Assembly (NCBI GenBank): GCA_017484125.1
Contig: JAFUTV010000006.1
Coordinates: forward strand, 1,658 to 65,657
Direction: 5' to 3'
Length of the DNA: 64,000 nt
Source of the DNA: Bacilli bacterium
Lineage (GTDB): Bacteria; Bacillota_I; Bacilli_A; RF39; UBA660
The position numbers and the translations under genes are program-made. Below, one piece after another: positions 7,766 through 28,736 of this stretch. The notes below the pieces were generated by a model. It was not told where the DNA came from. It worked only from the letters and a program-made list of their open reading frames with translations, and did not search any database. Each line of letters starts with the position of its first letter. The first letter of the stretch is position 1.

Positions 7766-8572
7766 TTATACACCATAAAATTGAAGGCCACCTATTTCAA
7801 CATAACTTGAAGAATATATATTAACTATAAATACTCTCCAATATTGATATGATTCATCTAATTTAGTATTAAATAAATAAACCGTAGAATTAGTATTAGC
7901 AAGTGTATAATTATCTGATGCATCAACCCATGTGCTATTATCATTACTTGCTTGTAATCTTACTGTTTTAGCTTGATAAGACTGTGGACCACCATTTAAA
8001 AACTTAGTTATTCTAACATTAACATTTGTATTAAATTTATATCCAATATATTGATTAGTTGTTTTACCATTGACATTACACCATGATTCACTTGCTTCAA
8101 TAAAAGCTTTCCATCCAGCCCAATTAGAAGAATATTCAGTACTATATATAACATTTGTATTATTTGATAAAGTTGGAACAAGTGCAGTTTTTAGTGCATT
8201 TAAAAGTGTAACATTAACTTTGTTTCTAAAATAAGTACTATCCATCATTTTTTTAGCTGCCGCTTTATTACTTGATATTTTACTCATAAAATTAGTAGTT
8301 AAGACATCATTTATATCAACTTTATCACCAGTTATATCAAGTATTTTTTTTAACTCTTCATCAGTATAGCCATTATTAATTTTATATAAACTATCTAAGG
8401 CATCACTAACATTTTCTATTGATGAGCCATCTTCTTTTTTCCAAGAATTATCAGTTGGAGTAAATCCAACATCATTTGAAAAAATTGAAAACGCCAAAAC
8501 AGATGTTATAGTAGTTGTTAATATAACACCTAAAATAAAGGTAAAGACTGAATTATTAAATATTTTCTTCAT
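7766..8572 (-). CDS. LH-family member 28 (long handle). Head: linker plus F5/8 type C (discoidin)-like domain
   Basis: N-terminus MKKIFNNSVFTFILGVILTTTITSVLAFSIFSNDVGFTPTDNSWKKEDGSSIENVSDALDSLY. C-terminus ..WKAF..NQYIGYKFNTNVNVRITKF..ASNDNSTWVD..YWRVFI..EIGGLQFYGV. Confidence 0.85.
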   Translation of the reverse strand: MKKIFNNSVFTFILGVILTTTITSVLAFSIFSNDVGFTPTDNSWKKEDGSSIENVSDALDSLYKINNGYTDEELKKILDITGDKVDINDVLTTNFMSKISSNKAAAKKMMDSTYFRNKVNVTLLNALKTALVPTLSNNTNVIYSTEYSSNWAGWKAFIEASESWCNVNGKTTNQYIGYKFNTNVNVRITKFLNGGPQSYQAKTVRLQASNDNSTWVDASDNYTLANTNSTVYLFNTKLDESYQYWRVFIVNIYSSSYVEIGGLQFYGV

Positions 8573-8629
8573 AGTGTTTTTCCTACCCTATATAGTATTA
8601 TACAATTAAATACTACTTTTTTAAATAAA

Positions 8630-9202
8630 TTATTCAAATTTTATATATCTAAGAACATAACTATCAGGATCATATGAATTAGTACCTTTATTATTAGATA
8701 CTAATGTTCCGTCCTCAGCAAATGTACATCTATAAAATACAAAATCTAGTTTTTGATCAAAATATTGGCTAGAATTATATCTACTAGACCCAGAACTTGT
8801 AAATCCTTTTGAATCAATTATTGTACATGTTCCATTTGTTGGTGTTAAATATACTGTACTGTCTCTTGTATTTACATAATTACATGTAGTCATTGCACCT
8901 GAATAAGAATATATTAAAGCTACTAAATATTTACCTTTAGTGGTATTAATACTTACATTATAATTACTTGTTCCATGCGCTTGTCCATAGGTTCCTAAAA
9001 CATTAGTTGAAGATACTTTATATAAAGGATTATCAGATAAAATATGTAAATAATCAATGGCATCACTTACATTATCTACATCCCATGTATTATCACTTGG
9101 AATATACTCTGTATCAGAAGAAAGGAAAGAAAACGCAAAAACAGTACTTATACTTCCAAAAATAAGTGCACCTAAAATAAAGCTAACTATTTTTCTTTTC
9201 AT
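8630..9202 (-). CDS. LH-family member 27. Small beta-rich head (KGKY type), paralog of 9226..9819
   Basis: N-terminus MKRKIVSFILGALIFGSISTVFAFSFLSSDTEYIPSDNTWDVDNVSDAIDYLH. Head ..TKGKYLVALIYSYSG..LTPTNGTCTIID..YDPDSYVLRYIKFE. Confidence 0.85.
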   Translation of the reverse strand: MKRKIVSFILGALIFGSISTVFAFSFLSSDTEYIPSDNTWDVDNVSDAIDYLHILSDNPLYKVSSTNVLGTYGQAHGTSNYNVSINTTKGKYLVALIYSYSGAMTTCNYVNTRDSTVYLTPTNGTCTIIDSKGFTSSGSSRYNSSQYFDQKLDFVFYRCTFAEDGTLVSNNKGTNSYDPDSYVLRYIKFE

Positions 9203-9225
9203 AATTACTTTCCTTTCTATTAAGA

Positions 9226-9819
9226 TTAATCTTTAAGTCTTATATACCTCATTACATATGTATCTGGATCATAGTTATTTGTTGCATAAGTTGTTGATGT
9301 AACAGAGCCATTTTCTTTAAAATCACATAAGAAAAATCCAAAACGTAATGTATTATTAAAACGATAATTACTAGAATACGCAACTGAATTTCCTCCACTG
9401 CCATAAAAATAAGAATCAATTGTTGTACATGTTCCATTTGTTGGAGTTAAACCTATTCCACCTTGAGATATTGAAGAATAATTATTTGCTTGAATTCCAC
9501 CACCATAAGAATAATATAGCATTACAAAGTATTTTCCTCTAGTAAAATTAGCTGATAAACTATTACTACTTGAAGCATGTGCTTGCTTATATGTTCCTTG
9601 AACATCATTACTATCTAAAGCCATAAATTTTTCTATTCCTATTTCATGAATAGATTCAAGAGCATCATAAACATTATCAACTTACCATTTATTATCTTTT
9701 GGAGTAAAGCCAATATTTGAAGCTATAAGTGAGTATGCAAAAACTGGTGTTATAAAGCTAAAAATAATAGCACCTAAGATAAAATAAAAGATATCTGAAT
9801 TTATTATTTTTTTTATCAT
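9226..9819 (-). pseudogene. LH-family member 26 interrupted by a single in-frame TAA at codon 46 (9682-9684). The head ORF 9226..9624 is still intact
   Basis: Manual translation from ATG 9819: MIKKIINSDIFYFILGAIIFSFITPVFAYSLIASNIGFTPKDNKW*VDNVYDALESIHEIGIEKFMALDSNDVQGTYKQAH.. It is in frame with the track ORF 9226..9624 (195 nt = 65 codons apart). Confidence 0.8.
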
Positions 9820-9847: not shown

Positions 9848-10690
9848 CTATCTAAAATTAGTTTTTGAAACAGTTATTACTGGTCTTAGACCATATATTG
9901 AACTATTGTTACAATTATTAACTAAGCCACCTCTTGAAATACACCAATACTCTGAATATCCAAAAATAAAATCATTTGTCCAATAACCATTTTGTTTTGC
10001 TGAGTTTGAATCAAGTTCTGTTGTTGGATCACAACCAAATGGACTACAATCACTCAAATAGTTAAACAACCATCGATATGGCTTAACAGCAGCTTTACCA
10101 GCTTCTGAAGCATAAGTCCAGTTTCCTTGAGCACATGAAGATTGATCTTTTAATCCCATACAAAACCATCCTGTATTTGCTTTATCTTCATATTTCCATG
10201 TTGGATAATCAACAGCATTAACTATTTGTTGTATATCAGGCATTTTTATAACTTGTACATATTTCCAATTTAAAGCAGAACCGGCTCCAGATTCAAAATA
10301 ATGTTTCGCATTTTTCCATGATATATTAGATTCAGTAATATTTCTTTCCATTATCAAATCCACTGAATTATCCCTTACTTCTAAAACATAAAAATTTCTT
10401 TTGATGTTATCTCCTGGATCACATTCATATTTTGTTCCTACACTAAAGTGATCACTTTCATCACCATATTCACTGTCTACATACCTACATATTTTCTTTA
10501 AAGCAATTGAATTTGTTCTATCATATAAATCATCTAGTGCTTCGGATACGTTTTCTACTTCCCAACTCGAATCTTTTGGAGTAAAACCTACATTACTCGA
10601 AACAATAGAGTATGCTAAAACTGACACTGCACTAAATATTACAGTACCTATGATAAATGTAAAAAGTGGATTTTTAAATATCTTTTTCAT
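9848..10690 (-). CDS. LH-family member 25. Cys-containing DUF6273-like head
   Basis: Leader MKKIFKNPLFTFIIGTVIFSAVSVLAYSIVSSNVGFTPKDSSWEVENVSEALDDLY. Head GTKYECDPGDNIKRNFYVLEVRDNSVDLIMERNI..GYWTND..YGLRPVITVSKTNF. Confidence 0.85.
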   Translation of the reverse strand: MKKIFKNPLFTFIIGTVIFSAVSVLAYSIVSSNVGFTPKDSSWEVENVSEALDDLYDRTNSIALKKICRYVDSEYGDESDHFSVGTKYECDPGDNIKRNFYVLEVRDNSVDLIMERNITESNISWKNAKHYFESGAGSALNWKYVQVIKMPDIQQIVNAVDYPTWKYEDKANTGWFCMGLKDQSSCAQGNWTYASEAGKAAVKPYRWLFNYLSDCSPFGCDPTTELDSNSAKQNGYWTNDFIFGYSEYWCISRGGLVNNCNNSSIYGLRPVITVSKTNFR

Positions 10691-10720: not shown

Positions 10721-11161
10721 TTATTTTCCATATGCAATCCAGTTAATAGTATCTGAATGTAAAACACTAAAGAATGAATTATACCCAATATCAAATGAAG
10801 TAGTTGTTATATTTGTTACATAAACAGATCCGCCAGATGTTCCAGCATTATACTCATACCTTATTTTAGGAATTTCCATAAATGGCTTTTCAAAGGTAAT
10901 TGTTATATATTTCCATGAATGAGTAAATGATATATTAATGCTACCAACTTCAACATGATTACCAATCTTATCTTCAATCATTTGATATTCACCTTTTAAA
11001 TAATCAAGAGCATCACTAACATTATCTACATTCCAATTACTAGCTTTTGGAGTAAAACCTACATTACTAGCTATAATTGAGTATGCAAAAACTGACACTG
11101 TACTAAATATTACAGCACCTAAGATAAAGTAAAATATTTTTATTTTTAATATTTTATCCAT
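10721..11161 (-). CDS. LH-family member 24. Small head, possibly H-type-lectin-like
   Basis: Leader MDKILKIKIFYFILGAVIFSTVSVFAYSIIASNVGFTPKASNWNVDNVSDALDYL. Head ..ITITFEKPFMEIPKIRYEY..VYVTNITTTSFDIGY..INWIAYGK. The lectin call is pattern memory only. Confidence 0.8.
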   Translation of the reverse strand: MDKILKIKIFYFILGAVIFSTVSVFAYSIIASNVGFTPKASNWNVDNVSDALDYLKGEYQMIEDKIGNHVEVGSINISFTHSWKYITITFEKPFMEIPKIRYEYNAGTSGGSVYVTNITTTSFDIGYNSFFSVLHSDTINWIAYGK

Positions 11162-11186
11162 TTTGCATACTCCTTTCTATTATTTA

Positions 11187-12134
11187 TTAAGCATCTACTC
11201 CATAAAATTGAACAGTTACTACATTTACATAACCACTTGATGTAGATGATATTATGTATATTCTCCATTGACTTCCTACATATATATCATTTAAAAAAAT
11301 TGTGTTTGTTCCACTATTTGAGGTATTAGATGCAGTTAGTGTTGTTGTTGCATCTTTCCAACTACCATCATAATATTGAATTTTAAATGTTTTAATATTT
11401 TCACTTAATGTTGGATTCATCCAATATACTTTATAAACAGAAATATTTTTATTAAAATTATAACCTATATAATTACCATTTACACTATTAGCAGGTGATG
11501 CAAATCTTGTGGAATTATTTCCATCAAATGCTCTATATCCACTATAAGTTGCATCATATCTACTTCCATAAACTACATTAGTATCACTTGATAGTGTTGG
11601 AACCTTAGTAGACTTTTTATCAAGTAAAGTAAGTGCTTCACTATCATTTATTATAGTATTTCTATTATCTTTATTTAATAAAATTCTTTGTCTTAAACTA
11701 CTTGATTTAAATATTTGATTATTGTAATTATCATCTTTAAATACTTCTAGTAAAGAAGAGTTTTGTATTCTATTATCTAAAGAATTAAAATACACTTTAC
11801 AATAATCATTTATACCAGTTGTATAAATATTCCAAGCATCTATATTAAAACCACTAGTATTTTCTTCACAATTAATATTAGTAAATAAGTTTTCATTACT
11901 AGGTATTTCTCTTACTTTTGCTCCATCTAAATATAAATAGTATTGTAGATTATTTTTCTTACTTCTTAAATCATCAAGTGCATCCTTAACATTATCTACT
12001 TCCCAATGAGTATCAAGTGGAGTAAAACCTACATCATTTGCTATTAAAGAATATGCAAAAACTGATGTAATACCTACTGCACTTACAAAACCTAATATAA
12101 AGATAAATATTTTTGATTTAAATAGTTTTTGCAC
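11187..12134 (-). CDS. LH-family member 23. Head: discoidin (F5/8 type C)-like domain. GTG start
   Basis: Leader (GTG)QKLFKSKIFIFILGFVSAVGITSVFAYSLIANDVGFTPLDTHWEVDNVKDALDDL. C-terminus ..YRAFDGNNSTRFASP..GNYIGYNFNKNISVYKVYW..YYDGSWKD..QWRIYI..VVTVQFYGVDA. Confidence 0.85.
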   Translation of the reverse strand: MQKLFKSKIFIFILGFVSAVGITSVFAYSLIANDVGFTPLDTHWEVDNVKDALDDLRSKKNNLQYYLYLDGAKVREIPSNENLFTNINCEENTSGFNIDAWNIYTTGINDYCKVYFNSLDNRIQNSSLLEVFKDDNYNNQIFKSSSLRQRILLNKDNRNTIINDSEALTLLDKKSTKVPTLSSDTNVVYGSRYDATYSGYRAFDGNNSTRFASPANSVNGNYIGYNFNKNISVYKVYWMNPTLSENIKTFKIQYYDGSWKDATTTLTASNTSNSGTNTIFLNDIYVGSQWRIYIISSTSSGYVNVVTVQFYGVDA

Positions 12135-12160
12135 AACTTTACTTCCTTTCTTTTTTTATT

Positions 12161-13033
12161 TTAATTATCCATTATTACTCCTGTTGGTTGAAATTGAACA
12201 TTACCATATGTTTCATTATCACTAGATTTAGCAGATACATAAAAGTTGGTATATACTTTTTCATTACTACTTACATCAACTGTTGTATTAACTATTGTTG
12301 CTGATCCAACCTTTACTCCACGTCCGGCTGAAAAACTTTTTATTAATTCCCAACTATTATTTGTATATCCATAAACATATACATATACAGTTGAAGCATA
12401 TATTGCACTACTATTACCAAATGCTCCATATATGTAAAACTTCTTTAACTGTAAATTACAATTACCATAAGTTAATAATGTTGTTGTATTATTAGTTCTA
12501 AGAACATATGGATATGATCCATTAGAGGCAGAGTAATTTTTATTTTCTAATGTAGATGTAGTTTTTAAACTTTGTGATTTACTTCTTAAATATTTATTGT
12601 AAATATCATATGCCATTACATAAACATTGTATTTTTTATTAGAGGTTAATCCAGAAATAGTTAGTTCATTACTTGTTGACATATTTAAATAAATATTTTG
12701 TTCATCATCTATAGCAAATGCATGATAGCCAAATATTTTATTATTATCAGTTGCTTCAACTGTTGGTATTACTTTAATACTATCATTTGTTAATACTGAT
12801 GTAAAAGAGACATTAGTTATAATATCACTTCTTGTTTTTGATTTGGCATATAATTCATTTATAGCTGTTTCTACTTCTTGAATATCATCACCTTCATCTG
12901 TTTTCCATGTAGTGTCTACTGGAGTAAAACCAACATCACTAGCTATAAAAGAGAATGCAAATACTGATGTAGCACTTGCTACAATTAAACCTAAAATAAA
13001 TATAAATAATCTTGATTTAATTAATCTTTTCAT
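12161..13033 (-). CDS. LH-family member 22 (long handle). Head: FN3-like domain plus an extra beta domain
   Basis: Leader MKRLIKSRLFIFILGLIVASATSVFAFSFIASDVGFTPVDTTWKTDEGDDIQEVETAINELY. Head ..ELTISGLTSNKKYNVYVMAYD... Confidence 0.85.
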   Translation of the reverse strand: MKRLIKSRLFIFILGLIVASATSVFAFSFIASDVGFTPVDTTWKTDEGDDIQEVETAINELYAKSKTRSDIITNVSFTSVLTNDSIKVIPTVEATDNNKIFGYHAFAIDDEQNIYLNMSTSNELTISGLTSNKKYNVYVMAYDIYNKYLRSKSQSLKTTSTLENKNYSASNGSYPYVLRTNNTTTLLTYGNCNLQLKKFYIYGAFGNSSAIYASTVYVYVYGYTNNSWELIKSFSAGRGVKVGSATIVNTTVDVSSNEKVYTNFYVSAKSSDNETYGNVQFQPTGVIMDN

Positions 13034-13051
13034 TTTGCATACTCCTTTCTT

Positions 13052-13552
13052 TTATTCTGCTTTAATTTTAATACCAGCTCCACCATTATTTAAGTTATTA
13101 TAACAATAAAAGTTAGCCTGTAATAAATGGTTATGATCAATTTGAAATTCATGTTCATTTAAATCTGATATTGTATATATTAATTGTCCATCTAAATATA
13201 TCCTAATGGAAATATATGTTCCCATATTTCCAGTACCTTGTAATGTTAATTTTTTATATTTATCTAATCCATTTATTGTTACAGGTGTAAAATTCCAATA
13301 TCCACTTCTTGAACCCATTTCAAATGGCCCATATTCTAAATCAAGAGGTTCAAGAGCACATGTATCTCTTAAATCATCAAGTGCTTCTTTGACATTTTCC
13401 ATTGGCTCTCCATTACTTTTTTTCCATGTATTATCTGTTGGAGTAAAAGCAACATCACTTGCAATAATAGAGTATGCAAAAACTGATGTAGTACTAGCTA
13501 CAATTAAGCCTAAAATAAACATAAATATTCTTGATTTAATTAATCTTTTCAT
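13052..13552 (-). CDS. LH-family member 21 (long handle). Small head
   Basis: The track ORF starts MKGVCK-MKRLIK. The first 6 codons are the family's conserved RBS/UTR (AAAGGAGTATGCAAAATG) read as protein, so the true start is ATG 13552. Leader MKRLIKSRIFMFILGLIVASTTSVFAYSIIASDVAFTPTDNTWKKSNGEPMENVKEALDDL. Confidence 0.8.
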   Translation of the reverse strand: MKRLIKSRIFMFILGLIVASTTSVFAYSIIASDVAFTPTDNTWKKSNGEPMENVKEALDDLRDTCALEPLDLEYGPFEMGSRSGYWNFTPVTINGLDKYKKLTLQGTGNMGTYISIRIYLDGQLIYTISDLNEHEFQIDHNHLLQANFYCYNNLNNGGAGIKIKAE

Positions 13553-13588
13553 TTTGCATACTCCTTTCATTTTTTATTAATATTTCTA

Positions 13589-14098
13589 TTAATTAATTTG
13601 AATTATTCTTATTAATCCTCTATAAGAAATTCTTCCAGATATTGTACCTGAAGCATTTTCAATATAATATACTCTGGTACGACCATATCCCTGACGTCCA
13701 TTAAATGCTTCTGAATTAGTCATATCATATAATGTTATATAATCATTTGGAATAGTTATAGTTGAATCTGCCTCACCTAAAGTTACATCTCTAATTGATG
13801 AAAGTATTACTAACACACCTTTAGTATTTGTTTCAATTGTATAAGAATAATTTGCTGGAGTTCCAGGACTATATTCATAAAGTGTTTTAAATTCCATTTT
13901 ACTAATTCTCTTATATAAGCTATCTAAGGCAGTTGAAACATCTTCAATAATTTGTCCATTACTATCTTTAAATGTATTATCAAGTGGAGTATATCCAACA
14001 TTTGTTGCAATTATAGAGTATGCAAAAACTGACACTGCACTAAATATTACAGCACCTAAAATAAACGTAAATATTGGATTTTTAAATAGTTTTTGCAT
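13589..14098 (-). CDS. LH-family member 20 (long handle). Small head
   Basis: Leader MQKLFKNPIFTFILGAVIFSAVSVFAYSIIATNVGYTPLDNTFKDSNGQIIEDVSTALDSLY. Head ..TNTKGVLVILSS..YRGLIRIIQIN. Confidence 0.85.
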   Translation of the reverse strand: MQKLFKNPIFTFILGAVIFSAVSVFAYSIIATNVGYTPLDNTFKDSNGQIIEDVSTALDSLYKRISKMEFKTLYEYSPGTPANYSYTIETNTKGVLVILSSIRDVTLGEADSTITIPNDYITLYDMTNSEAFNGRQGYGRTRVYYIENASGTISGRISYRGLIRIIQIN

Positions 14099-14132
14099 AA
14101 CTCTTTTCCTTCCTTTTATTAATACAATTTTT

Positions 14133-14678
14133 TTACTTTATTCCAAGTATTTTTTCTGGAACTATATATTTACCAGTAGTAGTATCAGAAGCATTACCCA
14201 TTGCTGCATTACCAAATTGAATCTTTTTATCTCCTGGACTTCCAAATGCTCTTAAATATACTCCACTTGCTCCATGTGTTGCTCTTCCACCAAGTCCAAG
14301 TGGTTGAGTAGTATAAGCATATAATTGATCAACAGAATATATTGCATATAATCTATCATTTTGAGCATGTGTTGGATTTGTATTATAAATAATTTTAATA
14401 TACCTATATTTTGCAAAAGTGTCTGATAATATAACAGTTTGAGCAGCAAAAGCAGCAGTTGGTGAAGGATTAGTCCAAAGTACAACTTCTCTTTCTACAT
14501 ATCTTTTATATAAATCATCGAGTGCTTCTTTGGTATCACTTACATTCCATGTATTATCTTTTGGTGTATATCCTACTTGATTAGCAGCTAGGTTGTATGC
14601 AAAAACTGCACTAATAGATCCAAATGTAATAACACCTAAAATATAGTAAAATACTTTTGTTTTAATTATATTTTTCAT
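14133..14678 (-). CDS. LH-family member 19. Small head (LWTNPSPTAAFAAQTV.. type)
   Basis: Leader MKNIIKTKVFYYILGVITFGSISAVFAYNLAANQVGYTPKDNTWNVSDTKEALDDLY. Confidence 0.85.
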   Translation of the reverse strand: MKNIIKTKVFYYILGVITFGSISAVFAYNLAANQVGYTPKDNTWNVSDTKEALDDLYKRYVEREVVLWTNPSPTAAFAAQTVILSDTFAKYRYIKIIYNTNPTHAQNDRLYAIYSVDQLYAYTTQPLGLGGRATHGASGVYLRAFGSPGDKKIQFGNAAMGNASDTTTGKYIVPEKILGIK

Positions 14679-14695
14679 TTTTGCATACTTCCTTT

Positions 14696-15226
14696 CTATT
14701 TTATTTTGTAAATATTAATAATTTTTAGTGAATAACCTCTTGCAATACTTTGTGACATTGTAATAGATACTTCTTTATTTCCTTCAACTTTTATTAAAGC
14801 TTGATATAAATTAACATTTGTTTCACCAACAAATTGATGATAATCAACTGGAGTATCAACAATTGTTGCATTTGTAACACTAACAGACATTGTTGAATTA
14901 AATCCTTCAGAATTAGCTTTAGTTACTTCAAGCAAATAGGTACCACTTGTTAAATTAACTGTTTTTGTCATTGTTGAATCATTATATGAATCAGGATAGA
15001 ATGAATATACGAGCTCTGCATTTGGTTTAGTTCTTTCATATAAATCATCTATTGCTTCTTTAACATTTTCTATATCACTTCCATCATCTTGTTTCCAAGC
15101 ATTATCTGTTGGTGTAAATCCTACATCAGGTGCTAGAATTGAATATGCTAAAACTGATGTAATAGAGCATGATATTATTACACCTAAGATAAACGTAAGT
15201 AATGGGTTTTTCATCAGTTTTTTCAT
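14696..15226 (-). CDS. LH-family member 18 (long handle). Small head
   Basis: Leader MKKLMKNPLLTFILGVIISCSITSVLAYSILAPDVGFTPTDNAWKQDDGSDIENVKEAIDDLY. Head ..LTSGTYLLEVTKANSEG..YSLKIINIYKIK. Confidence 0.85.
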   Translation of the reverse strand: MKKLMKNPLLTFILGVIISCSITSVLAYSILAPDVGFTPTDNAWKQDDGSDIENVKEAIDDLYERTKPNAELVYSFYPDSYNDSTMTKTVNLTSGTYLLEVTKANSEGFNSTMSVSVTNATIVDTPVDYHQFVGETNVNLYQALIKVEGNKEVSITMSQSIARGYSLKIINIYKIK

Positions 15227-15245
15227 ATATCTTTTCCTTTCTATT

Positions 15246-15737: not shown

Positions 15738-15755
15738 TTTGCATACTCCTTTCTT

Positions 15756-16550: not shown

Positions 16551-16583
16551 ACATCTATTTCCTTTCTTTTTTATTTTATTTTT

Positions 16584-17057: not shown

Positions 17058-17084
17058 ATTTACATACTCCTTTCTTTTATTTTT

Positions 17085-17912: not shown

Positions 17913-17932
17913 ATAATTCATTCCTTTCTTTT

Positions 17933-18988: not shown

Positions 18989-19026
18989 ATAATTCATTCC
19001 TTTCTATTATTTTTTTTGTTTATTAA

Positions 19027-19587: not shown

Positions 19588-19603
19588 ACTTCTTATTTCC
19601 TTT

Positions 19604-20110: not shown

Positions 20111-20141
20111 ACTCTTTATTTCCTTTCTATTTAATTTGAAT

Positions 20142-20648: not shown

Positions 20649-20671
20649 TTTACATACTCCTTTCTTTTTTA

Positions 20672-21760
20672 TTAACTTACTGTTAGAAGTGTAACTTTGG
20701 CATAGCCATTTCCACTTTTAGCATAATCACTTATTGGATTACTTGAAACATTTGTTGTAGATATAGTTTTAGTACTTTTTTCATCTGAAGTTGTGCAATT
20801 ATAACATGTCATATGTTTAGTAATTGTATTTAGTGATTTTAGATTAGATGAAGCAATATAACTTGAACCACCTCCAGCTCCAGCTACGGTAGAACCTCCA
20901 CCGCCATAGTATCCGCCTCCACCGCCGGAGCCTCCACCATTGTTACTTGCTGTACTGGAGTTACCACCTTTTCCAAAACTACCAGATGAAGGTGCTCCGC
21001 GCGAACCAGATGCAAAGCTTCCACCAGCACTTTGAGTTGCACCATATCCTTCTCTACCATTTGTTGAAGAACTTTTACCACCATTTATTCCTTTTATTCC
21101 TCCAGCAGATCCTCCATTAGCATTTTCGTTAGAAGCATAGTAATATGCTCCGCCTCCGCCACCGGAAGCAATTAATAACATTTCATTAGTTACAGCTTGA
21201 GTATAACCTAAAGATGCTAATGTTCCACTTTTCATAGCAATATGAGTTGCTCCACCGCCAGAGGCATTATATGTATTATTATTTAGCCAATGATAAGAAT
21301 TTCCTCCACCATTATATCCTCCAGTATAATCTCCCGTTGTTGAAGTACCATTCGTTCCAGCACCACCAACATTTATAAATAGTTTTTGTCCTTTTGTTAG
21401 TGAAACAACTCCTATAGAATATGCACCATATCCACCTACTTTATTTCCAGGAGTTGATCCCCCCTGCGCTCCCCATGTTTCTAAAATATATATTCCATTT
21501 AACGGAACAGTAAATTGTTCTTCTTTTCCTTCATAAGCAAAGCCCCATTCAAGTCCATCAAATCTTGTTTTGCAATAATCACATGTTTCATGTAAATCAT
21601 CTATTGCACTACCAGTATTATCAACTTCCCAATCTTCATCTTTTGGATTATAACCAACATCATTAGCAAATATTGAATATGCAAAAACTGATGTTATACC
21701 TATTGTTGATAAAACACCTAATATATAAGTAAATATTGGATTTTTTAATAGTTTTTGCAT
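20672..21760 (-). CDS. LH-family member 9. Head: C.YC motif plus glycine-rich (PF12810-like) domain
   Basis: Sequence MQKLLKNPIFTYILGVLSTIGITSVFAYSIFANDVGYNPKDEDWEVDNTGSAIDDLHETCDYCK..NGIYILETWGAQGG..SGGGATHIA..LIASGGGGGAYY..GGGGGYYGGGGS..KSGNGYAKVTLL. Confidence 0.85.
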   Translation of the reverse strand: MQKLLKNPIFTYILGVLSTIGITSVFAYSIFANDVGYNPKDEDWEVDNTGSAIDDLHETCDYCKTRFDGLEWGFAYEGKEEQFTVPLNGIYILETWGAQGGSTPGNKVGGYGAYSIGVVSLTKGQKLFINVGGAGTNGTSTTGDYTGGYNGGGNSYHWLNNNTYNASGGGATHIAMKSGTLASLGYTQAVTNEMLLIASGGGGGAYYYASNENANGGSAGGIKGINGGKSSSTNGREGYGATQSAGGSFASGSRGAPSSGSFGKGGNSSTASNNGGGSGGGGGYYGGGGSTVAGAGGGSSYIASSNLKSLNTITKHMTCYNCTTSDEKSTKTISTTNVSSNPISDYAKSGNGYAKVTLLTVS

Positions 21761-21802: not shown

Positions 21803-22369
21803 TTAATGATATATAAATATTCCTATGTTTTGTGGCAATGTGTTATATGGCGGATAATCTGGTCCAACATAAGTTAATGTATCACTTTCACTATTTATTT
21901 TTATTTCATATAGTGAGTAGTAAAAATAATTAGATTGATATCCTGATGAAGAAGAGGTAGCACTTACATCAAAGTATTTAGCAGTCTTTCTTTTAATTGA
22001 ACAGCTATTACATGTTAAACTTGTATCACTATCATAATCTTTTATTACTGTAGTGTGTCTAGAAGATGGCATTGCAGAAACTGCATCTATTGTAATTACA
22101 ACGTACCTTCCTTTAGATAATTCTTTAGTCAATGTTCTATTTCTACCTCTATTACCTTGGAAAGATACAATTTCTAAATTATCAAATCTAGCAATATCAT
22201 CTCTTAATTCATCTAATGCATTACTAACATTATCAACATCCCAATCATCGTCTTTTGGATTATAGCCAACATCTTGAGCTAGTAATGAGTATGCAAAAAC
22301 TGATACTGTTGAAAATATTACAGCACCTAATATAAAAGTAAATATTGGATTTTTTACTAGTTTTTTCAT
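21803..22369 (-). CDS. LH-family member 8. Small head (KGRY type)
   Basis: Leader MKKLVKNPIFTFILGAVIFSTVSVFAYSLLAQDVGYNPKDDDWDVDNVSNALDEL. Head ..LSKGRYVVITIDAVSA..IGIFIYH. Confidence 0.85.
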   Translation of the reverse strand: MKKLVKNPIFTFILGAVIFSTVSVFAYSLLAQDVGYNPKDDDWDVDNVSNALDELRDDIARFDNLEIVSFQGNRGRNRTLTKELSKGRYVVITIDAVSAMPSSRHTTVIKDYDSDTSLTCNSCSIKRKTAKYFDVSATSSSSGYQSNYFYYSLYEIKINSESDTLTYVGPDYPPYNTLPQNIGIFIYH

Positions 22370-23506: not shown

Positions 23507-24091
23507 TTAATCTTGTTTTAGTTTAATTGCATTCAATGTAATTCCTAAGGCAATATTATTATCAGTACCGCCTGTATATTTAAGTGTTATTGCTACATTG
23601 TCTTCATTTACTTCAGCATAGTAAATAAAATTTTGAAATCTAGTTATTGAATACATATTGTTAAATTTATTTGATGCTCGCGCTCTGTAGTGTTTTTTTG
23701 ATATATCTTTTATATCACATTTACTGGTATCATAGTTTAAAACAAGTGAACTATCAATTGTATATACTCCAGAACTTTCAGTTGTAGTATTATATCCATA
23801 ATTTGAAGTAGCTAATATAATGTATTTACCTTTATTTAAAGTAATCGATGTATTTTTAGCAGTTAGTTGCCCTAAATTTTGATTTGATATAGGCTCATCA
23901 AACGTTCCCATTTCCCATATACTATTATGTAAATTATCAAGTGCACTAGAAACATTATCAACATTCCAGTTTGTATCACTCGGAATATAGCCAACATCAT
24001 TTGCAAACAAGTCGTATGCAAATGCACTGCTACTAGCAATAGTTATACCTAAAATAAATGTAAATATTGGATTTTTAAATATTTTCTTCAT
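23507..24091 (-). CDS. LH-family member 6. Small head (KGKY type)
   Basis: The track start MQM.. is the conserved UTR ATGCAA. The likely start is ATG 24091. Leader MKKIFKNPIFTFILGITIASSSAFAYDLFANDVGYIPSDTNWNVDNVSSALDNLH. Head ..LNKGKYIILATSNYGY... Confidence 0.85.
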   Translation of the reverse strand: MKKIFKNPIFTFILGITIASSSAFAYDLFANDVGYIPSDTNWNVDNVSSALDNLHNSIWEMGTFDEPISNQNLGQLTAKNTSITLNKGKYIILATSNYGYNTTTESSGVYTIDSSLVLNYDTSKCDIKDISKKHYRARASNKFNNMYSITRFQNFIYYAEVNEDNVAITLKYTGGTDNNIALGITLNAIKLKQD

Positions 24092-24110: not shown

Positions 24111-24938
24111 TTATTCTGGTGTCACATACACCTCAGTAATATAGTCATATGTATCCCAGTTTGCTATATGTATTTGACCAGTATAGTTATTAAGTGTAAA
24201 TTTATCTAAATATGCTCCCGTTGTTCTATTAGAACTTGCAATATTATTTACACTAATATATGGTACATTTGTTCCACTAATTGATGTTTTATAGTATTTA
24301 ACATAAATACTTTTATATTTTGATACATCAATACTATTTACGGTTATCATTCTTGATTTTGAACATCCAGCAGCTGAATTATATAAAAGTATATTTGTTG
24401 AATTTTTTTGAAATAATCCTCTTCTAGGGGTACATCCTTCATCTACTATTTCTACATTCCATCCTCCTGTTATTATCTCATATTCATTCCCATCATTATA
24501 TAACCATATTCTATTTAAAGTTGTTAAATCTGTTTCTGAAGTTTTGACTAATTTATCATTCGAATCATAAGCATTTACTTTAATTTTATATGTCGTATTT
24601 AGATTTAAATTAGTAAACGTATATGTATCACTTGTTGAATTTTCTTTGAATACATTATCTATGTAATAAGTATACTTTGAAGATATTTGTTTTACATAAT
24701 CTGGTATTTTTACTTTTATATATGTTCCATTTAATTCAAGAGCTTCAACATTAAATGAATTAATTCTATTATGCAAATCATCTATAGCATCTTTTGTATT
24801 ATCTACTTTCCAATTACTATCTCTTGGTGTAAATCCTACATCATCAGCTATAAGTGAGTATGCAAAAACTGATGTAGTGCTTACTACAATTAAACCTAAA
24901 ATAAATACAAATATTCTTGATTTAATTAGTTTTTGCAT
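24111..24938 (-). CDS. LH-family member 5. Head: FN3-like domain plus 'TGGW' beta domain (related to member 1)
   Basis: Leader MQKLIKSRIFVFILGLIVVSTTSVFAYSLIADDVGFTPRDSNWKVDNTKDAIDDLH. Then ..TFTNLNLNTTYKIKVNAYD.., then IWLYNDGNEYEIITGGW... Confidence 0.85.
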   Translation of the reverse strand: MQKLIKSRIFVFILGLIVVSTTSVFAYSLIADDVGFTPRDSNWKVDNTKDAIDDLHNRINSFNVEALELNGTYIKVKIPDYVKQISSKYTYYIDNVFKENSTSDTYTFTNLNLNTTYKIKVNAYDSNDKLVKTSETDLTTLNRIWLYNDGNEYEIITGGWNVEIVDEGCTPRRGLFQKNSTNILLYNSAAGCSKSRMITVNSIDVSKYKSIYVKYYKTSISGTNVPYISVNNIASSNRTTGAYLDKFTLNNYTGQIHIANWDTYDYITEVYVTPE

Positions 24939-24958: not shown

Positions 24959-26038
24959 TTACTTGACTACTTCTAAAGTTATTCTTGCGTAACCATTTCC
25001 TATTTTAGCTTTATCTGATTGTGGTTTATTTTCTACATCATCAGTTGTAATTGTTTTTGTTGAATCATCATCAGATGTTGTACATTTATAACATGTTGTA
25101 TGTTTAGTCAATAAATTTGTCGAAATCAATCTTGAACTTGCAATATAACTTGAACCACCGCCAGCACCAGAGTGTCTTGATGATCCACCACCGTAGTAGC
25201 CTCCACCGCCACCTGGTTCATTATTTCCATAGCAAGCTCCACCGGCTGCACCTTGGCCAAATGATCCTGAATTACAAGAACCAGTTTGACCAGCACCACC
25301 AGAGTCCTGAGTACCACCATGACCTACACTTGTTGTCCAGTTATTATGAAATCCATCATGTCCTATATAACCACCACCATGGCCACCAGAACCACTCGGA
25401 GTTGTGCCATTAGAACCATCAGAATAGTGAATACTACCACCACCTCCACCGGCAACGATTAAAATATCACCTTTTCTATCAACTAATGATGATAAAACGC
25501 CAGATGAGAAAGCAATGTGAGTGGCACCACCTCCACCGGCACCCCATCCGCCATATCCTTGTGAAGTATATCCAGTACCTTTACCACCACCATTGTAACC
25601 AGCATTACCTGAAGAATCACCTTGGCCACCAACGTTGATAAATAATATATCGCCTTCATTTAATTTAACATAACCAGTAGCAAAACCACCATAACCACCA
25701 CTAAAACTTGAAGAAGCGTTTCCTCCTTGTGCTCCCCATACTTCTAATTTATATATTCCAGATAATGGAACTGGGAAATTTTGTTCTTCTCCTTCATATG
25801 GATAATTCCAAACAAGTCCTTCAAATCTTGTTTTACAATAAGTACAAGTTTCGTGTAATTCATCTAGTGCTTCACCAGTATCATTAATATCAGTTCCATC
25901 AGATTTTTTCCAAGAACTATCTGATGGTGTAAAGCCTACATCACTAGCAATTAAGGAGTATGCAAAAGCTGATGTAGTACTAGCTACAATTAAACCTAAG
26001 ATAAATACAAATATTCTTGATTTAAATAGTTTTTGCAT
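24959..26038 (-). CDS. LH-family member 4 (long handle). Head: C.YC motif plus glycine-rich (PF12810-like) domain
   Basis: Sequence MQKLFKSRIFVFILGLIVASTTSAFAYSLIASDVGFTPSDSSWKKSDGTDINDTGEALDELHETCTYCK..SGIYKLEVWGAQGG..GGGGATHIA..LIVAGGGGGS..GGGGGYYGGGSS..KIGNGYARITL. Confidence 0.85.
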   Translation of the reverse strand: MQKLFKSRIFVFILGLIVASTTSAFAYSLIASDVGFTPSDSSWKKSDGTDINDTGEALDELHETCTYCKTRFEGLVWNYPYEGEEQNFPVPLSGIYKLEVWGAQGGNASSSFSGGYGGFATGYVKLNEGDILFINVGGQGDSSGNAGYNGGGKGTGYTSQGYGGWGAGGGGATHIAFSSGVLSSLVDRKGDILIVAGGGGGSIHYSDGSNGTTPSGSGGHGGGYIGHDGFHNNWTTSVGHGGTQDSGGAGQTGSCNSGSFGQGAAGGACYGNNEPGGGGGYYGGGSSRHSGAGGGSSYIASSRLISTNLLTKHTTCYKCTTSDDDSTKTITTDDVENKPQSDKAKIGNGYARITLEVVK

Positions 26039-26063: not shown

Positions 26064-26906
26064 TTAATATAGATTTGTTTTAAATACTGTAATAGTAGGT
26101 CTAACTCCCATATATTTGTTTGTTGTTATTTCCAAATTAGACAATGAACCACTTGAATGAATTCGCCATGCATATTGTGAAGATGTACTAGTATTAATAT
26201 AATCTGAAGTCCAATATCCGTATGCTTCATCAGATGTTAACTCATTTGGACAATGATATTCTTGATCAAAATACAAATAATCATGAAGCCAACAATAATC
26301 AGTATCTTTTTTACATCTTGCACCTGATACATTATCATAGACTTTACTTTTTAAACAAAATATATCATTAACAGTCGCAGTTGTTGCTTTCCAATTAGTT
26401 TTTCCAACAGCTAAAGCAATATCATTTGCTTTTGGTAAGTCTACATCTATTACATTATTCCATAATACTTTTATATTATTGTCATCTATATATGATTTAG
26501 CATCCATCCAAGTCATTACCTTTTTTGATGTTTTTTCAGTTAAATTATGTTGCATTATTAATTTAATAACTTCACCATTAACATTTAATATGTAAAAATT
26601 TCTTAATATTCCATCACCTGGGTCACATTCATATTGTGTTCCAACAGCATATAAATCAGATTTATCTTGAGAATAATCATTATTAGCATAAGTACAAACT
26701 CTTCTAAATGCCATTGAATTAATTTTATTATGTAAATCATCTAGTGCTTCTTTAGTATTTTCTACTTCCCAAGAATTATCTTTTGGAGTAAATCCAACAT
26801 CATTTGCAATTATTGAATATGAGATAGCAAAAACTGATGTAATTCCAATTACACTTGTAACACCTAATATAAATACAAATAATTTTGATTTAAACAGTTT
26901 TTGCAT
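26064..26906 (-). CDS. LH-family member 3. Cys-containing DUF6273-like head
   Basis: Leader MQKLFKSKLFVFILGVTSVIGITSVFAISYSIIANDVGFTPKDNSWEVENTKEALDDLH. Head GTQYECDPGDGILRNFYILNVNGEVIKLIMQHNL..GYWTSD..MGVRPTITVFKTNL. Confidence 0.85.
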   Translation of the reverse strand: MQKLFKSKLFVFILGVTSVIGITSVFAISYSIIANDVGFTPKDNSWEVENTKEALDDLHNKINSMAFRRVCTYANNDYSQDKSDLYAVGTQYECDPGDGILRNFYILNVNGEVIKLIMQHNLTEKTSKKVMTWMDAKSYIDDNNIKVLWNNVIDVDLPKANDIALAVGKTNWKATTATVNDIFCLKSKVYDNVSGARCKKDTDYCWLHDYLYFDQEYHCPNELTSDEAYGYWTSDYINTSTSSQYAWRIHSSGSLSNLEITTNKYMGVRPTITVFKTNLY

Positions 26907-26929
26907 ATCTTTATTTTCCTTTCTATTTT

Positions 26930-28015
26930 TTAATTTGCAATTAATAGTGTTATTTTGGCATATCCATGACCACTTTTTGCATAGTCACTTATTGGATCAT
27001 CCGAAACATTTGTTGTTGATATTGTTTTGGTGCCTTCTTCATCTGAAGTTGTACAATTATAACATGCCATATGTTTAGTAACTGATAATGCTGATTCTAA
27101 GTTTTCTGAAGCTATATAGCCTGATCCTCCAGCTCCACCATGTCGTCCACCGCTTGCTCCACCAAAGTATCCACCGCCACCACCTGGCATTCTAACGTTA
27201 ATTGCTCCACCGCCTTTGCCAAATGATCCACTTTGTGAGTTGTAGCACTGACTACCACCACATGTAGTCATGTAATTTCCTCCAGCTTCTTGAGTACCAC
27301 CAGTTGCTGATCCAATTGGATAAGTATAATTAGACACATTTTTAACTGTGGCTTTTTCTCCTTGTTTTCCTCCACCAGCACCACCAACTCCATAGTAGTC
27401 TGACGAAAATTTAACTGCACCTCCGCCACCACCGGCAACAATTAAAATACTATTCTTGTCATTTTCAAGTGAAGAAAGTAATCCAGATGATGTTGCAATA
27501 TGTGTTGCACCTCCACCAGCGCCAACATATACATCAGCATCATTAATTGACCTTGCAGAACCTCCGCCATTATATCCTCCAGCAATTACAGTATCACTGT
27601 GATATATACTTGTTCCTTGTCCGCCGACATTGATATAAAGAGTATCGTTATTACTTAATCTAACTATTCCAGTTGAATATCCACCATAACCACCAGCATA
27701 AGAATTAGTTGCGTCCCCTCCTTGTGCTCCCCAGGCTTCTAATTTGTAGATTCCTGAAATTGGAACAGGAAATTCTTGTTCTTTTCCTTCATATGGAATT
27801 TTCCAAACCAATCCTTCAAAACGACTCTTGCAATAATCACATGTTTCATGTAAATCATCTAAACCACTCTTAACATTATCCACATTCCAATCCTCATCTT
27901 TTGGAGTAAATCCTACATCTTGAGCTAGTAATGAGTATGCAAAAACTGATACTGTTGAAAACATTACAGCACCTAATACGAAGAAAAATATTCTTGATTT
28001 AAATAGTTTTTTCAT
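26930..28015 (-). CDS. LH-family member 2. Head: C.YC motif plus glycine-rich (PF12810-like) domain
   Basis: Sequence MKKLFKSRIFFFVLGAVMFSTVSVFAYSLLAQDVGFTPKDEDWNVDNVKSGLDDLHETCDYCK..SGIYKLEAWGAQGG..AGGGATHIA..LIVAGGGGGA..GGGGGYFGGASG..KSGHGYAKITLL. Confidence 0.85.
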   Translation of the reverse strand: MKKLFKSRIFFFVLGAVMFSTVSVFAYSLLAQDVGFTPKDEDWNVDNVKSGLDDLHETCDYCKSRFEGLVWKIPYEGKEQEFPVPISGIYKLEAWGAQGGDATNSYAGGYGGYSTGIVRLSNNDTLYINVGGQGTSIYHSDTVIAGGYNGGGSARSINDADVYVGAGGGATHIATSSGLLSSLENDKNSILIVAGGGGGAVKFSSDYYGVGGAGGGKQGEKATVKNVSNYTYPIGSATGGTQEAGGNYMTTCGGSQCYNSQSGSFGKGGGAINVRMPGGGGGYFGGASGGRHGGAGGSGYIASENLESALSVTKHMACYNCTTSDEEGTKTISTTNVSDDPISDYAKSGHGYAKITLLIAN

Positions 28016-28052
28016 ATTTGCATACTCACCTCCTTATTTGTGAATTATTTAT

Positions 28053-28736
28053 TTAATTTGCAGGTCCTTTATTTTTTGATAAATAAACACCATATATTCT
28101 TAAAGTAGTTACCGAATCACTTGATATACCTCTCATTGTTGTAAATGAAATATACCCTGGATCACTACATGTAAGCGGATAAGATACAATAAGCATGTTG
28201 CTACCTACTAAATTGTAGCCGTATATTCTTTCACTTCCATTAATTACATATGTTGGATTTGTTTTACTTTCAACTGCTACCTGAGCCCAGTAAATGTTTG
28301 ATGCATAGTAGAGTATATTTATATATTCATAATTTGTACAATCTATTTTGTTATTGGTATTAGCTACAACATACTGGTAGGTACTATTTATTGAAACATC
28401 CATATGATCAGAATTAAATACTGCACTCTTTTTATTTATTCCTGTGTTATTGCCTCCACCCCAAATTCCATAATTCATTGATGAAGACCAGCCACCTGTT
28501 ACAGCATCAAATGTATTTCCTTTCCAATACAGGAATAATTTTTTTTCTTGTGCATTAAATTCATCTCGCAAATCATCTAGTGCTTCTTTTGTATTATCTA
28601 CTTCCCAAGTAGTGTCTTTTGGAGTAAAACCTACATCTTGTGCTAAAAGTGAGTATGCAAATACTGAAGAAATACCACTAACTATAACTATGCCTAGTAT
28701 CAAAAATAAAAATCTTGATTTAAATAATTTTTTCAT
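28053..28736 (-). CDS. LH-family member 1 (first cistron). Head: 'TGGW' beta-rich domain
   Basis: Leader MKKLFKSRFLFLILGIVIVSGISSVFAYSLLAQDVGFTPKDTTWEVDNTKEALDDL. Head LFLYWKGNTFDAVTGGWSSS.. parallels IWLYNDGNEYEIITGGW of 24111..24938. RBS AAGGAAGGTG. Confidence 0.85.
   Translation of the reverse strand: MKKLFKSRFLFLILGIVIVSGISSVFAYSLLAQDVGFTPKDTTWEVDNTKEALDDLRDEFNAQEKKLFLYWKGNTFDAVTGGWSSSMNYGIWGGGNNTGINKKSAVFNSDHMDVSINSTYQYVVANTNNKIDCTNYEYINILYYASNIYWAQVAVESKTNPTYVINGSERIYGYNLVGSNMLIVSYPLTCSDPGYISFTTMRGISSDSVTTLRIYGVYLSKNKGPAN

Follow-up and report, generated by a model that had tools for sequence, protein, structure and literature searches.

The stretch of DNA analysed here, 64,000 nucleotides of contig JAFUTV010000006.1 (positions 1,658 to 65,657) in the assembly GCA_017484125.1 and referred to as the window, carries on its minus strand, at positions 7766-28736, an array of 28 tandem cistrons. 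All of them begin with the same N-terminus of about 60 residues, in the following called the handle, and then continue into variable C-terminal parts, the heads. This array is probably an operonic repertoire of Sec-exported lectin- or adhesin-like proteins whose architecture resembles that of the distal tips of phage tail fibres. The assignment to exported, fibre-tip-like proteins of lectin or adhesin character follows from the combination of a signal peptide, a phage motif and binding-type heads. Each of the 27 intact genes would give rise to a protein with a Sec-type signal peptide, followed by the constant segment and then by one beta-rich head. The signal peptide would export the product, with signal peptidase I cutting after V-x-A, and the heads may supply varied ligand specificities, for example for glycans of plants, of the host or of microbes in the rumen. 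The constant segment might in addition provide a shared means of assembly or attachment, for instance by forming oligomers or by keeping the proteins at the cell surface, which is conjecture, as is a docking via the handle.

A predicted Sec signal peptide and a conserved mature segment

An earlier sequence-only reading of the window had described a common N-terminus with a consensus, and this description is correct: 27 N-termini align at 52% mean column identity, the residues G15, A27, P39 and L62 are invariant in this alignment, and a degenerate DNA pattern of the handle has 12 matches in the window as compared to none in 100 shuffles. On inspection, the handle has the charged n-region, the h-region and the small residues at -3 and -1 that are the sequence criteria for Sec and signal peptidase I. 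Among 210 distinct N-termini of the family, K is found at positions 2, 3 and 6 in 82-86%, the hydrophobic core comprises about 17 residues (positions 9-26), position -1 is A in 99%, and position -3 is V in 86% and A in 9%, i.e. V or A in 95%. Inspection of the sequence places the predicted signal peptidase I site after V-x-A at position 26/27. The mature part of the handle, about 30 residues of the type [YF]S..A.[DN][VI]G[FY]TP.D..W.V.NV..A[LI]D.L, comes in two lengths, a short form and a long form that is six residues longer.

The array products contain no LPXTG motif, no conserved lipobox and no C-terminal transmembrane segment, in line with the earlier statement on LPXTG and lipobox Cys. 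A lipoprotein identity was rejected, as there is neither a conserved leader Cys nor a conserved lipobox; the one match to a lipobox regular expression, in the gene at 14696, is not conserved. A class III pilin signal was rejected as well, as there is no G at -1 directly after a charged leader and no F+1/E+5, and as the charged leader passes directly into the hydrophobic core, inside which G15 lies. With respect to TasA/camelysin, there was no Peptidase_M73 or SipW-signal match in Pfam or NCBIfam (the latter, here and below, run on 10 of the 28 proteins), and profile searches of the handle gave no match in Pfam, NCBIfam, PHROG or PDB. The earlier view that the handle stands outside the curated families thus held. 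The handle does have relatives, as its mature part matches an uncurated motif that occurs very frequently in tail-fibre proteins of phages.

The mature handle and a phage tail-fibre motif

The mature handle resembles a motif of phage fibres, and this resemblance was tested by profile comparison. The phage motif is a segment of about 28 residues, with A, [VI].[YFN] and then [ST]NV..A[IL][DN].L at fixed spacing. A DNA pattern for TNV[QE][DE]A[LI][DN]EL occurs at 120 or more IMG/VR loci, at least, with an estimated chance expectation below 1. Among the IMG/VR matches listed, the carriers of the motif have a median length of 421 residues and often several copies; upstream of the searched part the carriers read A..[VI].[YN]....G[LI].A, and of six carriers that were tested, four match PHROG families annotated as tail fibres or tail-collar fibres. 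For the comparison with the handle, a hidden Markov model (HMM) was made of 63 phage segments only. When this phage-only HMM was applied to 700 segments of open reading frames (ORFs) of the window, the 13 highest-ranking segments all belonged to array genes, and in most of these the match extended over the handle; the best E-values were 7e-5, 0.002, 0.025 and 0.027. With the same model, 134 of the 210 family N-termini scored higher than any of 1,260 decoys obtained by reversal or shuffling. In hhalign, the mature handle (A4) and the phage motif (A7) align with a probability of 97.2% and an E-value of 3.6e-11 over 28 columns. On this profile evidence, the mature handle is a divergent copy of the phage tail-fibre motif, a similarity that by itself gives no proven mechanism. 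The handle profile had no meaningful sequence match in PDB, and a literature search with the phage motif as a sequence string found no paper.

In the IMG/VR loci L023-L142, the motif A..[VI].[YN]....G[LI].ATNVQ[DE]A[IL][DN]EL is very common and often repeated in tail-fibre-like proteins. A shortened handle variant (…AYNYNAKDVSYKNTNVEDALKDLY…) that lacks the TP.D..W loop is encoded at positions 1169-1759 of locus L019; it is visually nearer to the phage motif and may be an evolutionary intermediate.

Given this motif, the array could in principle be a relic or an auxiliary collection of receptor-binding proteins of a phage or tailocin, which would serve in particle assembly inside the cell and would not be secreted. 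Not only the handle motif is typical of phage fibres, but also ALK_LTK_GRD (in short GRD, which is present in PHROGs), DUF6273 and, in a relative, Gp10_C. However, all copies begin with a hydrophobic signal peptide, a feature absent from tail fibres, the flanks contain the housekeeping genes for Fpg, PolA and EzrA, and the window has no other gene for a phage structural protein. Moreover, the consensus handle found no relative in IMG/VR, and the mature handle peptide gave no match in GenBank phages (tblastn). We regard this reading as very unlikely, and housekeeping flanks, signal peptides and the lack of handle relatives in these searches of IMG/VR and of GenBank phages also led us to reject a tail fibre or receptor-binding protein that is a component of a virion.

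Variable heads of predicted binding type

The array genes are, in the order of transcription:

28053-28736 (-): gene 1, 227 aa; handle (E 1.5e-33) and unclassified beta-rich head
26930-28015 (-): gene 2, 361 aa; handle and ALK_LTK_GRD head (PF12810, E 8.5e-39)
26064-26906 (-): gene 3, 280 aa; handle and DUF6273-like head (GT.Y.CDPGD), in a BLAST cluster with the genes at 15756 and 9848
24959-26038 (-): gene 4, 359 aa; long-form handle and ALK_LTK_GRD head (PF12810, E 1.1e-34)
24111-24938 (-): gene 5, 275 aa; handle, weak fn3 (E 0.0015, below the curated cut-off) and a C-terminal domain of unknown type
23507-24091 (-): gene 6, 194 aa; handle and small beta-sandwich head, cluster C00
22405-23478 (-): gene 7, 357 aa; handle, Flg_new repeat (PF09479, E 1.8e-12) and a C-terminal domain of unknown type
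21803-22369 (-): gene 8, 188 aa; handle and beta-sandwich head, cluster C00; modelled with AlphaFold2
20672-21760 (-): gene 9, 362 aa; handle and ALK_LTK_GRD head (PF12810, E 4.2e-34)
20142-20648 (-): gene 10, 168 aa; handle and small head; paralogue of gene 11, heads 64% identical
19604-20110 (-): gene 11, 168 aa; handle and small head
19027-19587 (-): gene 12, 186 aa; handle and small head, a singleton within the window
17933-18988 (-): gene 13, 351 aa; long-form handle and ALK_LTK_GRD head (PF12810, E 1.7e-39)
17085-17912 (-): gene 14, 275 aa; handle and discoidin-like head (PF00754, E 9.2e-4, weak), BLAST-linked to the genes at 11187 and 7766
16584-17057 (-): gene 15, 157 aa; handle and small head
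15756-16550 (-): gene 16, 264 aa; handle and DUF6273-like head (PF19789, E 4.2e-4, below cut-off)
15246-15737 (-): gene 17, 163 aa; long-form handle and small head
14696-15226 (-): gene 18, 176 aa; long-form handle and small head
14133-14678 (-): gene 19, 181 aa; handle and small head
13589-14098 (-): gene 20, 169 aa; long-form handle and small head
13052-13552 (-): gene 21, 166 aa (start supported by the ribosome-binding site); long-form handle and small head
12161-13033 (-): gene 22, 290 aa; long-form handle, weak fn3 (E 0.0083) and a domain of unknown type
11187-12134 (-): gene 23, 315 aa, GTG start; handle and F5/8 type C (discoidin) head (PF00754, E 2.3e-7, and PF22633, E 3.1e-6, both over cut-off)
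10721-11161 (-): gene 24, 146 aa; handle and H-type lectin head (PF09458, E 9.6e-7, over cut-off)
9848-10690 (-): gene 25, 280 aa; handle and DUF6273-like head (BLAST cluster)
9226-9819 (-): gene 26, pseudogene; handle cut by an in-frame TAA after Trp, head 47% identical to that of its paralogue gene 27
8630-9202 (-): gene 27, 190 aa; handle and beta-sandwich head, cluster C00
7766-8572 (-): gene 28, 268 aa; long-form handle and discoidin-like head (PF00754, E 7.8e-5, weak)

Pfam thus assigns four of the 28 heads to ALK_LTK_GRD (E 1e-34 to 1e-39), three to discoidin, one of which lies over the curated cut-off while the two weak ones are BLAST-linked to it, one each to H_lectin and Flg_new, and two weakly to fn3; the DUF6273-like heads are a BLAST-linked trio within which there is a single weak match to DUF6273. 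DUF6273-like domains have been reported by others to be C-type-lectin-like. These classes had already been named in the sequence-only reading, while two further proposals of that reading, a “TGGW type” class and a second “lectin-like” head, found no support (hhalign probability below 20%). Its central statement on the heads, namely that they are unrelated to each other, was borne out by the homology searches. All-versus-all BLAST sorts the 28 heads into 19 clusters, 14 of them singletons, and when 144 heads of database relatives are included, the resulting 172 heads form 83 clusters with 56 singletons. When 21 head clusters, drawn from the window and from its relatives, were compared by hhalign, no cross-cluster homology was detected except for one link, which connects the largest cluster to a cluster that has no member in the window.

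An AlphaFold2 model of gene 8, built with 20 homologues, confidently shows an all-beta head of beta-sandwich type in which most blocks of 10 residues have a predicted local distance difference test score (pLDDT) of 88-96 and two blocks have 78-79, while the handle reaches 48-69. At E ≤ 0.001, Foldseek with this head matched nothing in PDB and gave a single viral match, with an E-value of 7.9e-4 and a TM-score of 0.14; all other similarities in both libraries were weak and concerned jelly-roll, TNF, C1q, CBM3 and fibre-tip folds. When all heads were compared by tblastn to 120 motif-bearing viral loci, matches were obtained for one head only (best E-value 5e-5). As judged by these comparisons, the array heads are truly unrelated domains of binding type.

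A constant N-terminus that precedes variable C-termini is also the layout of polymorphic toxins, or of lectin-like bacteriocins with a common trafficking domain, and an ABC exporter with a C39 peptidase domain is indeed encoded 18 kb off. However, Pfam and NCBIfam found no toxin domain in any head, and, as the gaps measure 16-57 bp, there is no room for immunity genes, in agreement with the earlier observation that interleaved ORFs of immunity size are absent. The leader also misfits a double-glycine signal for the nearby C39 exporter, which was therefore rejected: it is hydrophobic, and the residue before G15 is A, V, I or L. The toxin reading is thus extremely unlikely, and the known polymorphic toxin types (LXG, Rhs, CDI) were rejected because the heads are of binding type or beta-sandwiches and there is no space for immunity genes.

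Secretion or membrane anchoring

Several points weigh against a repertoire of secreted proteins with a phage-derived segment. The sequences of the phage profile were chosen with a search pattern, so that ten columns of the profile are fixed by ascertainment. As the motif is short, convergence could also account for the likeness, and the profile of the phage motif has no meaningful PDB sequence match and belongs to no curated family. For the handle, AlphaFold2 predicts a helix at residues 8-33, a loop and a second helix at residues 48-67, with no compact fold (pLDDT values of 48-82 and of 60-87 per block; predicted template modelling score 0.36). The assignments of the two fn3 heads, two discoidin heads and DUF6273 lie below the Pfam cut-offs. 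Secretion is a prediction, and we infer the cleavage, the co-transcription, the glycan binding and the role of the handle after export. Last but not least, the conservation of the leader is exceptionally high for a Sec signal, with F12 at 92%, L14 at 92% and G15 at 96%.

This strong conservation of the leader keeps a signal-anchor reading alive, in which an uncleaved N-terminal helix would tether the heads to the membrane, and the conserved segment would be a juxtamembrane stalk that may pack with its kin. Conserved beyond the level of ordinary Sec signals are not only the three positions just mentioned but also the small residues at positions 20/21, there is no alternative anchor (LPXTG, lipobox, C-terminal transmembrane segment) in the products, and the continuous helix that AlphaFold2 predicts from residue 8 to residues 30-33 spans the putative cleavage site. 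On the other hand, A at -1 in 99% and V or A at -3 in 95% follow the rule of signal peptidase I, and the giant proteins of the family, one of which is encoded next to the array, have retained the mature motif downstream of a different, canonical signal peptide that has a VKA site. Moreover, sporulation and cell-division genes of the kind found in walled Firmicutes are present, and a head of 100-130 residues on a stalk of about 30 residues would probably be too short to cross the wall. Membrane anchoring therefore appears rather unlikely to us, and we prefer the reading as exported lectin- or adhesin-like proteins.

A putative operon with its own leader

The ORF listing and the extraction of ribosome-binding sites (RBSs) and starts agree with the sequence-only reading in that 28 tandem minus-strand cistrons, the first of which starts at 28736, each have their own RBS and start. 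The RBS is of the AGAAAGGAG/A type and is located at a constant spacing to ATG, or in one case GTG. The junctions, which had been given as 11-57 bp, are 16-57 bp long with RBS-supported starts, and the claim that every copy is translatable holds for 27 of the 28 genes, the pseudogene at 9226-9819 with its in-frame TAA following the handle Trp being the other one. In public annotation, the 45-residue N-terminal stump of this pseudogene is listed as a separate protein (MBR1416337). Three signals lie at the ends of the array:

28898-28906 (-): candidate promoter-like extended -10 box TGcTATAAT upstream of the array, read from the sequence
28736-28785 (-): RNA hairpin in which the RBS of array gene 1 is paired; inverted repeat I5, minimum free energy -20.9 kcal/mol, z -4.58, with none of 200 shuffles as stable
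7695-7721 (-): intrinsic-terminator-like hairpin after the last array gene; 8-bp stem, U7, dG -8.8 kcal/mol, z -4.87

Folding gave no terminator-like hairpin in any of the 27 junctions (best dG -1.4 kcal/mol), which together with the hairpin at 7695-7721 confirms that there is one terminator at the end and none inside. The 660 bp at 28737-29400 upstream of the first gene are non-coding and hold the extended -10 box TGcTATAAT. Promoter-like hexamers are not enriched within the array (129, as compared to 145 ± 13 in shuffled sequence), and the promoter scan detected a promoter-like site in a single junction, the 57-bp junction before gene 28 (TTTAAA-17-TATAAT, 8597-8625). As there is one upstream promoter-like region, no internal terminator and one terminal terminator, and as the junctions are too small for promoters of the individual genes, co-transcription is probable, as the earlier reading had it, and to judge from this layout the array is most likely one long operon. 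The hairpin at 28736-28785 stops one base short of the ATG of gene 1 and could be a candidate element for translational control or for mRNA stabilisation of the whole array.

The giant neighbour

The earlier reading had confined the family to the array from 7766 upwards and had thought of the giant protein encoded at 1-7508 as a possible docking partner. Neither the limit at 7766 nor an independent docking partner can be upheld, as the giant protein carries the same handle and is thus itself a family member, with a C-terminal dockerin of its own. The features concerned are:

1-7508 (-): 5' 7.5 kb of the giant gene, 29th family member with a 4007-aa product; handle hmmsearch E 1.3e-14
7535-7543 (-): promoter-like extended -10 box TGtTATAAT of the giant gene, conserved at the orthologous locus L020
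28752-28831 (-): relic of the 5' end of the giant gene within the array leader; signal-peptide coding part, frame broken

According to Pfam, the giant protein consists of a canonical signal peptide, the handle motif, GRD and at least 21 cadherin-like domains, and precomputed Pfam data add Big_2 and Dockerin_1 beyond residue 3247, in the last 760 residues, which are encoded outside the window; positions 11065-20807 and beyond of locus L021 are the continuation of the giant gene. A dockerin on a giant fibre in a MAG (metagenome-assembled genome) of spore-forming “Bacilli” implies a cohesin partner elsewhere in the genome. At its N-terminus (MMKNRIINLKNKFNILIMLVIILMSFCVFTNSVKA/YDTYAYDVGYTPADENWDVDNVNDALDGLY) there is a different canonical signal peptide, which in the giant proteins is non-homologous to the array leader and ends with VKA, and then the same motif follows. 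As the motif is kept behind another signal peptide, it is the motif and not the leader that appears to be the constant functional unit, and a shared function after export is probable. A protein search with the giant N-terminus gave a single match, of 402 residues, and one with the short handle gave fragments alone.

In a second rumen species (L020, from another rumen sample), a 13-gene array is likewise followed by a giant orthologue, which is 58% identical, whereas the upstream flank differs (spoIIGA-sigE). The same handle and this kept linkage argue against the giant protein being an unrelated dock. A TAATGyTATAAT box precedes the array and the giant gene in the window as well as the giant gene in L020. 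The relic in the array leader aligns locally to the giant 5' end with a score of 69, as compared to 23.4 ± 2.9 and a maximum of 34 in 200 shuffles, and its small ORF reads MKIVNLNRYNLVFLIKLVAILISFCDF where the giant has MMKNRIINLKNKFNILIMLVIILMSFCVF. The frame-broken relic, together with the same promoter box before both, suggests that the array start arose by duplication of the start of the giant gene.

The shared motif leads to a further possible arrangement, in which the small proteins would join the N-terminal end of the dockerin-anchored fibre of 4007 residues by co-assembly of handles. The handle would then be a phage-derived co-assembly element, by which some 27 proteins oligomerise onto the tip of the giant fibre, and the whole would be an appendage with swappable tips that is owned by the cell. 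That the giant protein has the motif N-terminally and the dockerin C-terminally would fit such an arrangement, as would the order of array and giant gene, which is kept in L020 despite the other upstream flank, and the array leader, which copies the promoter box and the 5' end of the giant gene. In addition, phage fibres, from which the motif stems, are oligomeric according to the literature, and the handle alone is predicted to be unstructured. However, the handle-handle contact is itself conjectural, handle genes in Tb.RUG.233 and L019 are found without a giant gene in the stretches examined, and the synteny is explicable if the array originated from the 5' end of the giant gene. We consider such exchangeable tips quite improbable.

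Evolution of handles and heads

Among the paralogues, the handles have a median DNA identity of 67%, and the median proportions of synonymous and non-synonymous differences are 0.40-0.50 and 0.29, respectively. With such values, the conservation of the handle is mostly a conservation at the protein level among old paralogues, and gene conversion as its sole cause was dropped. The three most similar 5' modules, with 86-89% identity over -22..+117, belong to adjacent gene pairs with unrelated heads; genes 4 and 5 are 86% and genes 21 and 22 are 89% identical in this part, and one of the pairs, genes 13 and 14, has an exact 5' stretch of 52 nt in common.

Only 3 of the 13 heads in L020 match heads of the window, and the others are alike in the handle alone; heads turn over fast between species. 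Two GRD heads that are common to the window and L020 have a ratio of non-synonymous to synonymous substitutions (dN/dS) of 0.18-0.19, which indicates that the heads are functional and under purifying selection. Gene 4 (24959-26038) and its counterpart at 13187-14251 of L020 are 84% identical overall, with a dN of 0.06 in the head and 0.30 in the handle, and as the nearly identical head stands behind a short-form handle in L020 and behind a long-form handle here, handle and head must have recombined. The 84% identity of gene 4, as compared to 58% for the giant protein, points to either a recent transfer of the head or a strong constraint. The array evolves via tandem duplication, conversion of 5' modules between neighbours, recombination of handles and heads, and gene decay.

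Paralogues in tandem that share a conserved 5' end and vary in their 3' parts are also known from phase or antigenic variation, as in the vlp/vsp/vsa loci of Mycoplasma or in pilin cassettes, where few copies are expressed at once, and the exact stretches of 40-52 nt in some 5' modules could support recombination. However, neither the array genes nor their junctions contain simple-sequence repeats, and there is no lipobox, no convincing inverted repeats that flank the array promoter, and no recombinase domain, nor a reverse transcriptase domain, in the window ORFs scanned with Pfam, the latter two as stated before. In addition, every intact copy has its own RBS and start, the junctions are too short for promoters, and the median DNA identity of the handles is just 67%. 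It is scarcely conceivable that the array serves such a purpose. Phase variation, a phage or tailocin remnant and toxins each lack defining features in this array, and the earlier distinction from silent cassettes, Mycoplasma lipoproteins and polymorphic toxins thus stands.

Source genome and spread of the family

The products are exact matches to MBR1416337-MBR1416365, encoded on a contig of 225,976 bp in a ruminant-gut MAG of an uncultured bacterium, named “Bacilli bacterium”, all but one of which are annotated as hypothetical. In two other assemblies the array is 100% identical, which excludes an assembly artefact and offers no variation to compare. Pfam identifies housekeeping genes in the flanks (Fpg, PolA, EzrA and tRNA synthetases), and the genes for SpoIIP, a SpoIIIAH-like protein and GerM characterise the host as a walled spore-former; these three genes are located at 41104-42042, 50205-50690 and 50996-51913 of the window. 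The L020 array directly follows spoIIGA-sigE, and a CotZ-like gene is found near it.

The array is not unique. A HMMER search with the handle profile against 1.84 billion cluster representatives gave 1,867 matches at E ≤ 1e-3 and 615 at E ≤ 1e-10, so that the family comprises about 1,900 clusters at 50% identity, and in all of the best 150 of the 1,867 matches the handle is at residues 1-60. All members that could be traced originate from metagenomes or MAGs of the rumen or of ruminants (XIEF21, STEW19, WILK20 and Tb.RUG sets), with no cultured isolate among them. Comparable arrays, of six (Tb.RUG.233), seven (L008) or thirteen (L020) genes, are found in further rumen MAGs and metagenome contigs, and dispersed single handle genes are also present in other genomes. 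A scan of JGI metagenomes returned contigs of Tb.RUG.233 alone. In Tb.RUG.233 and L019, handle genes occur as singletons or as an array with a housekeeping flank (MutS) on one side, without a giant gene in the stretches examined.

Relation to known systems

A constant leader or proximal module with swappable heads is a known logic, and the family lacks membership features of each system that follows it. Phage receptor-binding proteins also have a constant proximal part and an exchangeable distal binding domain. The phage fibre motif A..V.Y...ATNVQDAIDEL aligns with the mature handle, and GRD, DUF6273 and the Gp10_C of a relative are also found in fibres. Unlike phage fibres, however, the array proteins all have a Sec signal and are encoded in chromosomal arrays of 13-28 genes with no phage genes near. 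Type IV pilins likewise have a constant hydrophobic N-terminus and a variable head (“lollipop”).

With the vlp/vsp/vsa systems of Mycoplasma, the array has in common the tandem paralogues, the conserved 5' leader with a variable remainder, and the predicted surface exposure, but it lacks a lipobox Cys, internal repeats, phase-variable promoters and an invertase, and while the Mycoplasma loci vary repeats, the array heads are unrelated folded domains. Cellulosome systems share the rumen habitat and the principle of a small constant module that is combined with diverse functional modules, and the giant protein carries Dockerin_1. Unlike in cellulosomal dockerin proteins, however, the handle is a single N-terminal segment, the heads are binding domains and not enzymes, and no cohesin was seen in the window. 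PF00404 matched none of the 28 array products (E up to 0.01) and none of the 27 handles (E up to 1), and the handle as a single-segment dockerin or EF-hand, a resemblance seen by eye alone, was rejected for want of profile support. As for diversity-generating retroelements, the Pfam scans of window ORFs found no reverse transcriptase domain, and no search for a template repeat was made.

Proteins with an SVM signal have a conserved, lineage-specific signal peptide before many unrelated secreted proteins, in a lineage derived from low-GC Gram-positive bacteria. These proteins are effectors, are scattered in mobile units and are not known to have a conserved mature segment. The array resembles them in that its conserved leader heads many unrelated secreted proteins, but it differs by the conserved mature segment of the handle, by the long operon-like arrangement and by the lectin-like domains. 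SVM_signal (PF12113) was not among the Pfam matches of the 27 handles at E up to 1. The SVM-signal proteins of phytoplasmas (PF12113) are mentioned in PMC6638208.

What is new is the combination of a Sec signal, a phage-fibre motif and an extreme diversity of heads in long operon-like arrays that are linked to a dockerin-bearing giant fibre. This is a large protein family without an entry in the curated libraries, in which one module for export, including the motif, is placed on many unrelated binding domains, and it is a concrete case of a phage tail-fibre element that a bacterium has apparently reused for secreted or surface proteins. The phage-fibre motif itself, very common as it is, has neither been curated nor structurally solved, which appears to be a gap in curation and in structural coverage and makes it worth a structure. 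If the heads bind glycans, they would be a catalogue of new lectin folds and a clue as to how rumen Bacilli attach to plant fibre, to the host and to other microbes. The operon-like array, the fast turnover of heads and the link to the giant fibre yield clear testable predictions.

Further genes in the window

Several other genes of the window, all on the minus strand, were also noticed. The gene at 34253-34621 encodes a protein of 122 residues with a type IV pilin-like N-terminus (MKRNG/YTVYDILIIIVILG) that is quite unlike the handle. It adjoins the gene at 34671-36257 for a protein of 528 residues with Flg_new and DUF6273, a type of head that is also found among the array heads, here without a handle. 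The gene at 36336-36647 encodes a Cys/His-rich protein of 103 residues (…CPPVCEAPQERCCQRDIHHCIEH…) with no Pfam match, which might be a protein of the spore-coat type. The ABC exporter with the C39 peptidase domain, which is of the bacteriocin type, is encoded at 46041-48092, and small unannotated ORFs are located nearby at 45611-46057 and 44275-45069. Finally, the gene at 52909-53838 encodes an ankyrin-repeat protein; such proteins are unusual in free-living Firmicutes.

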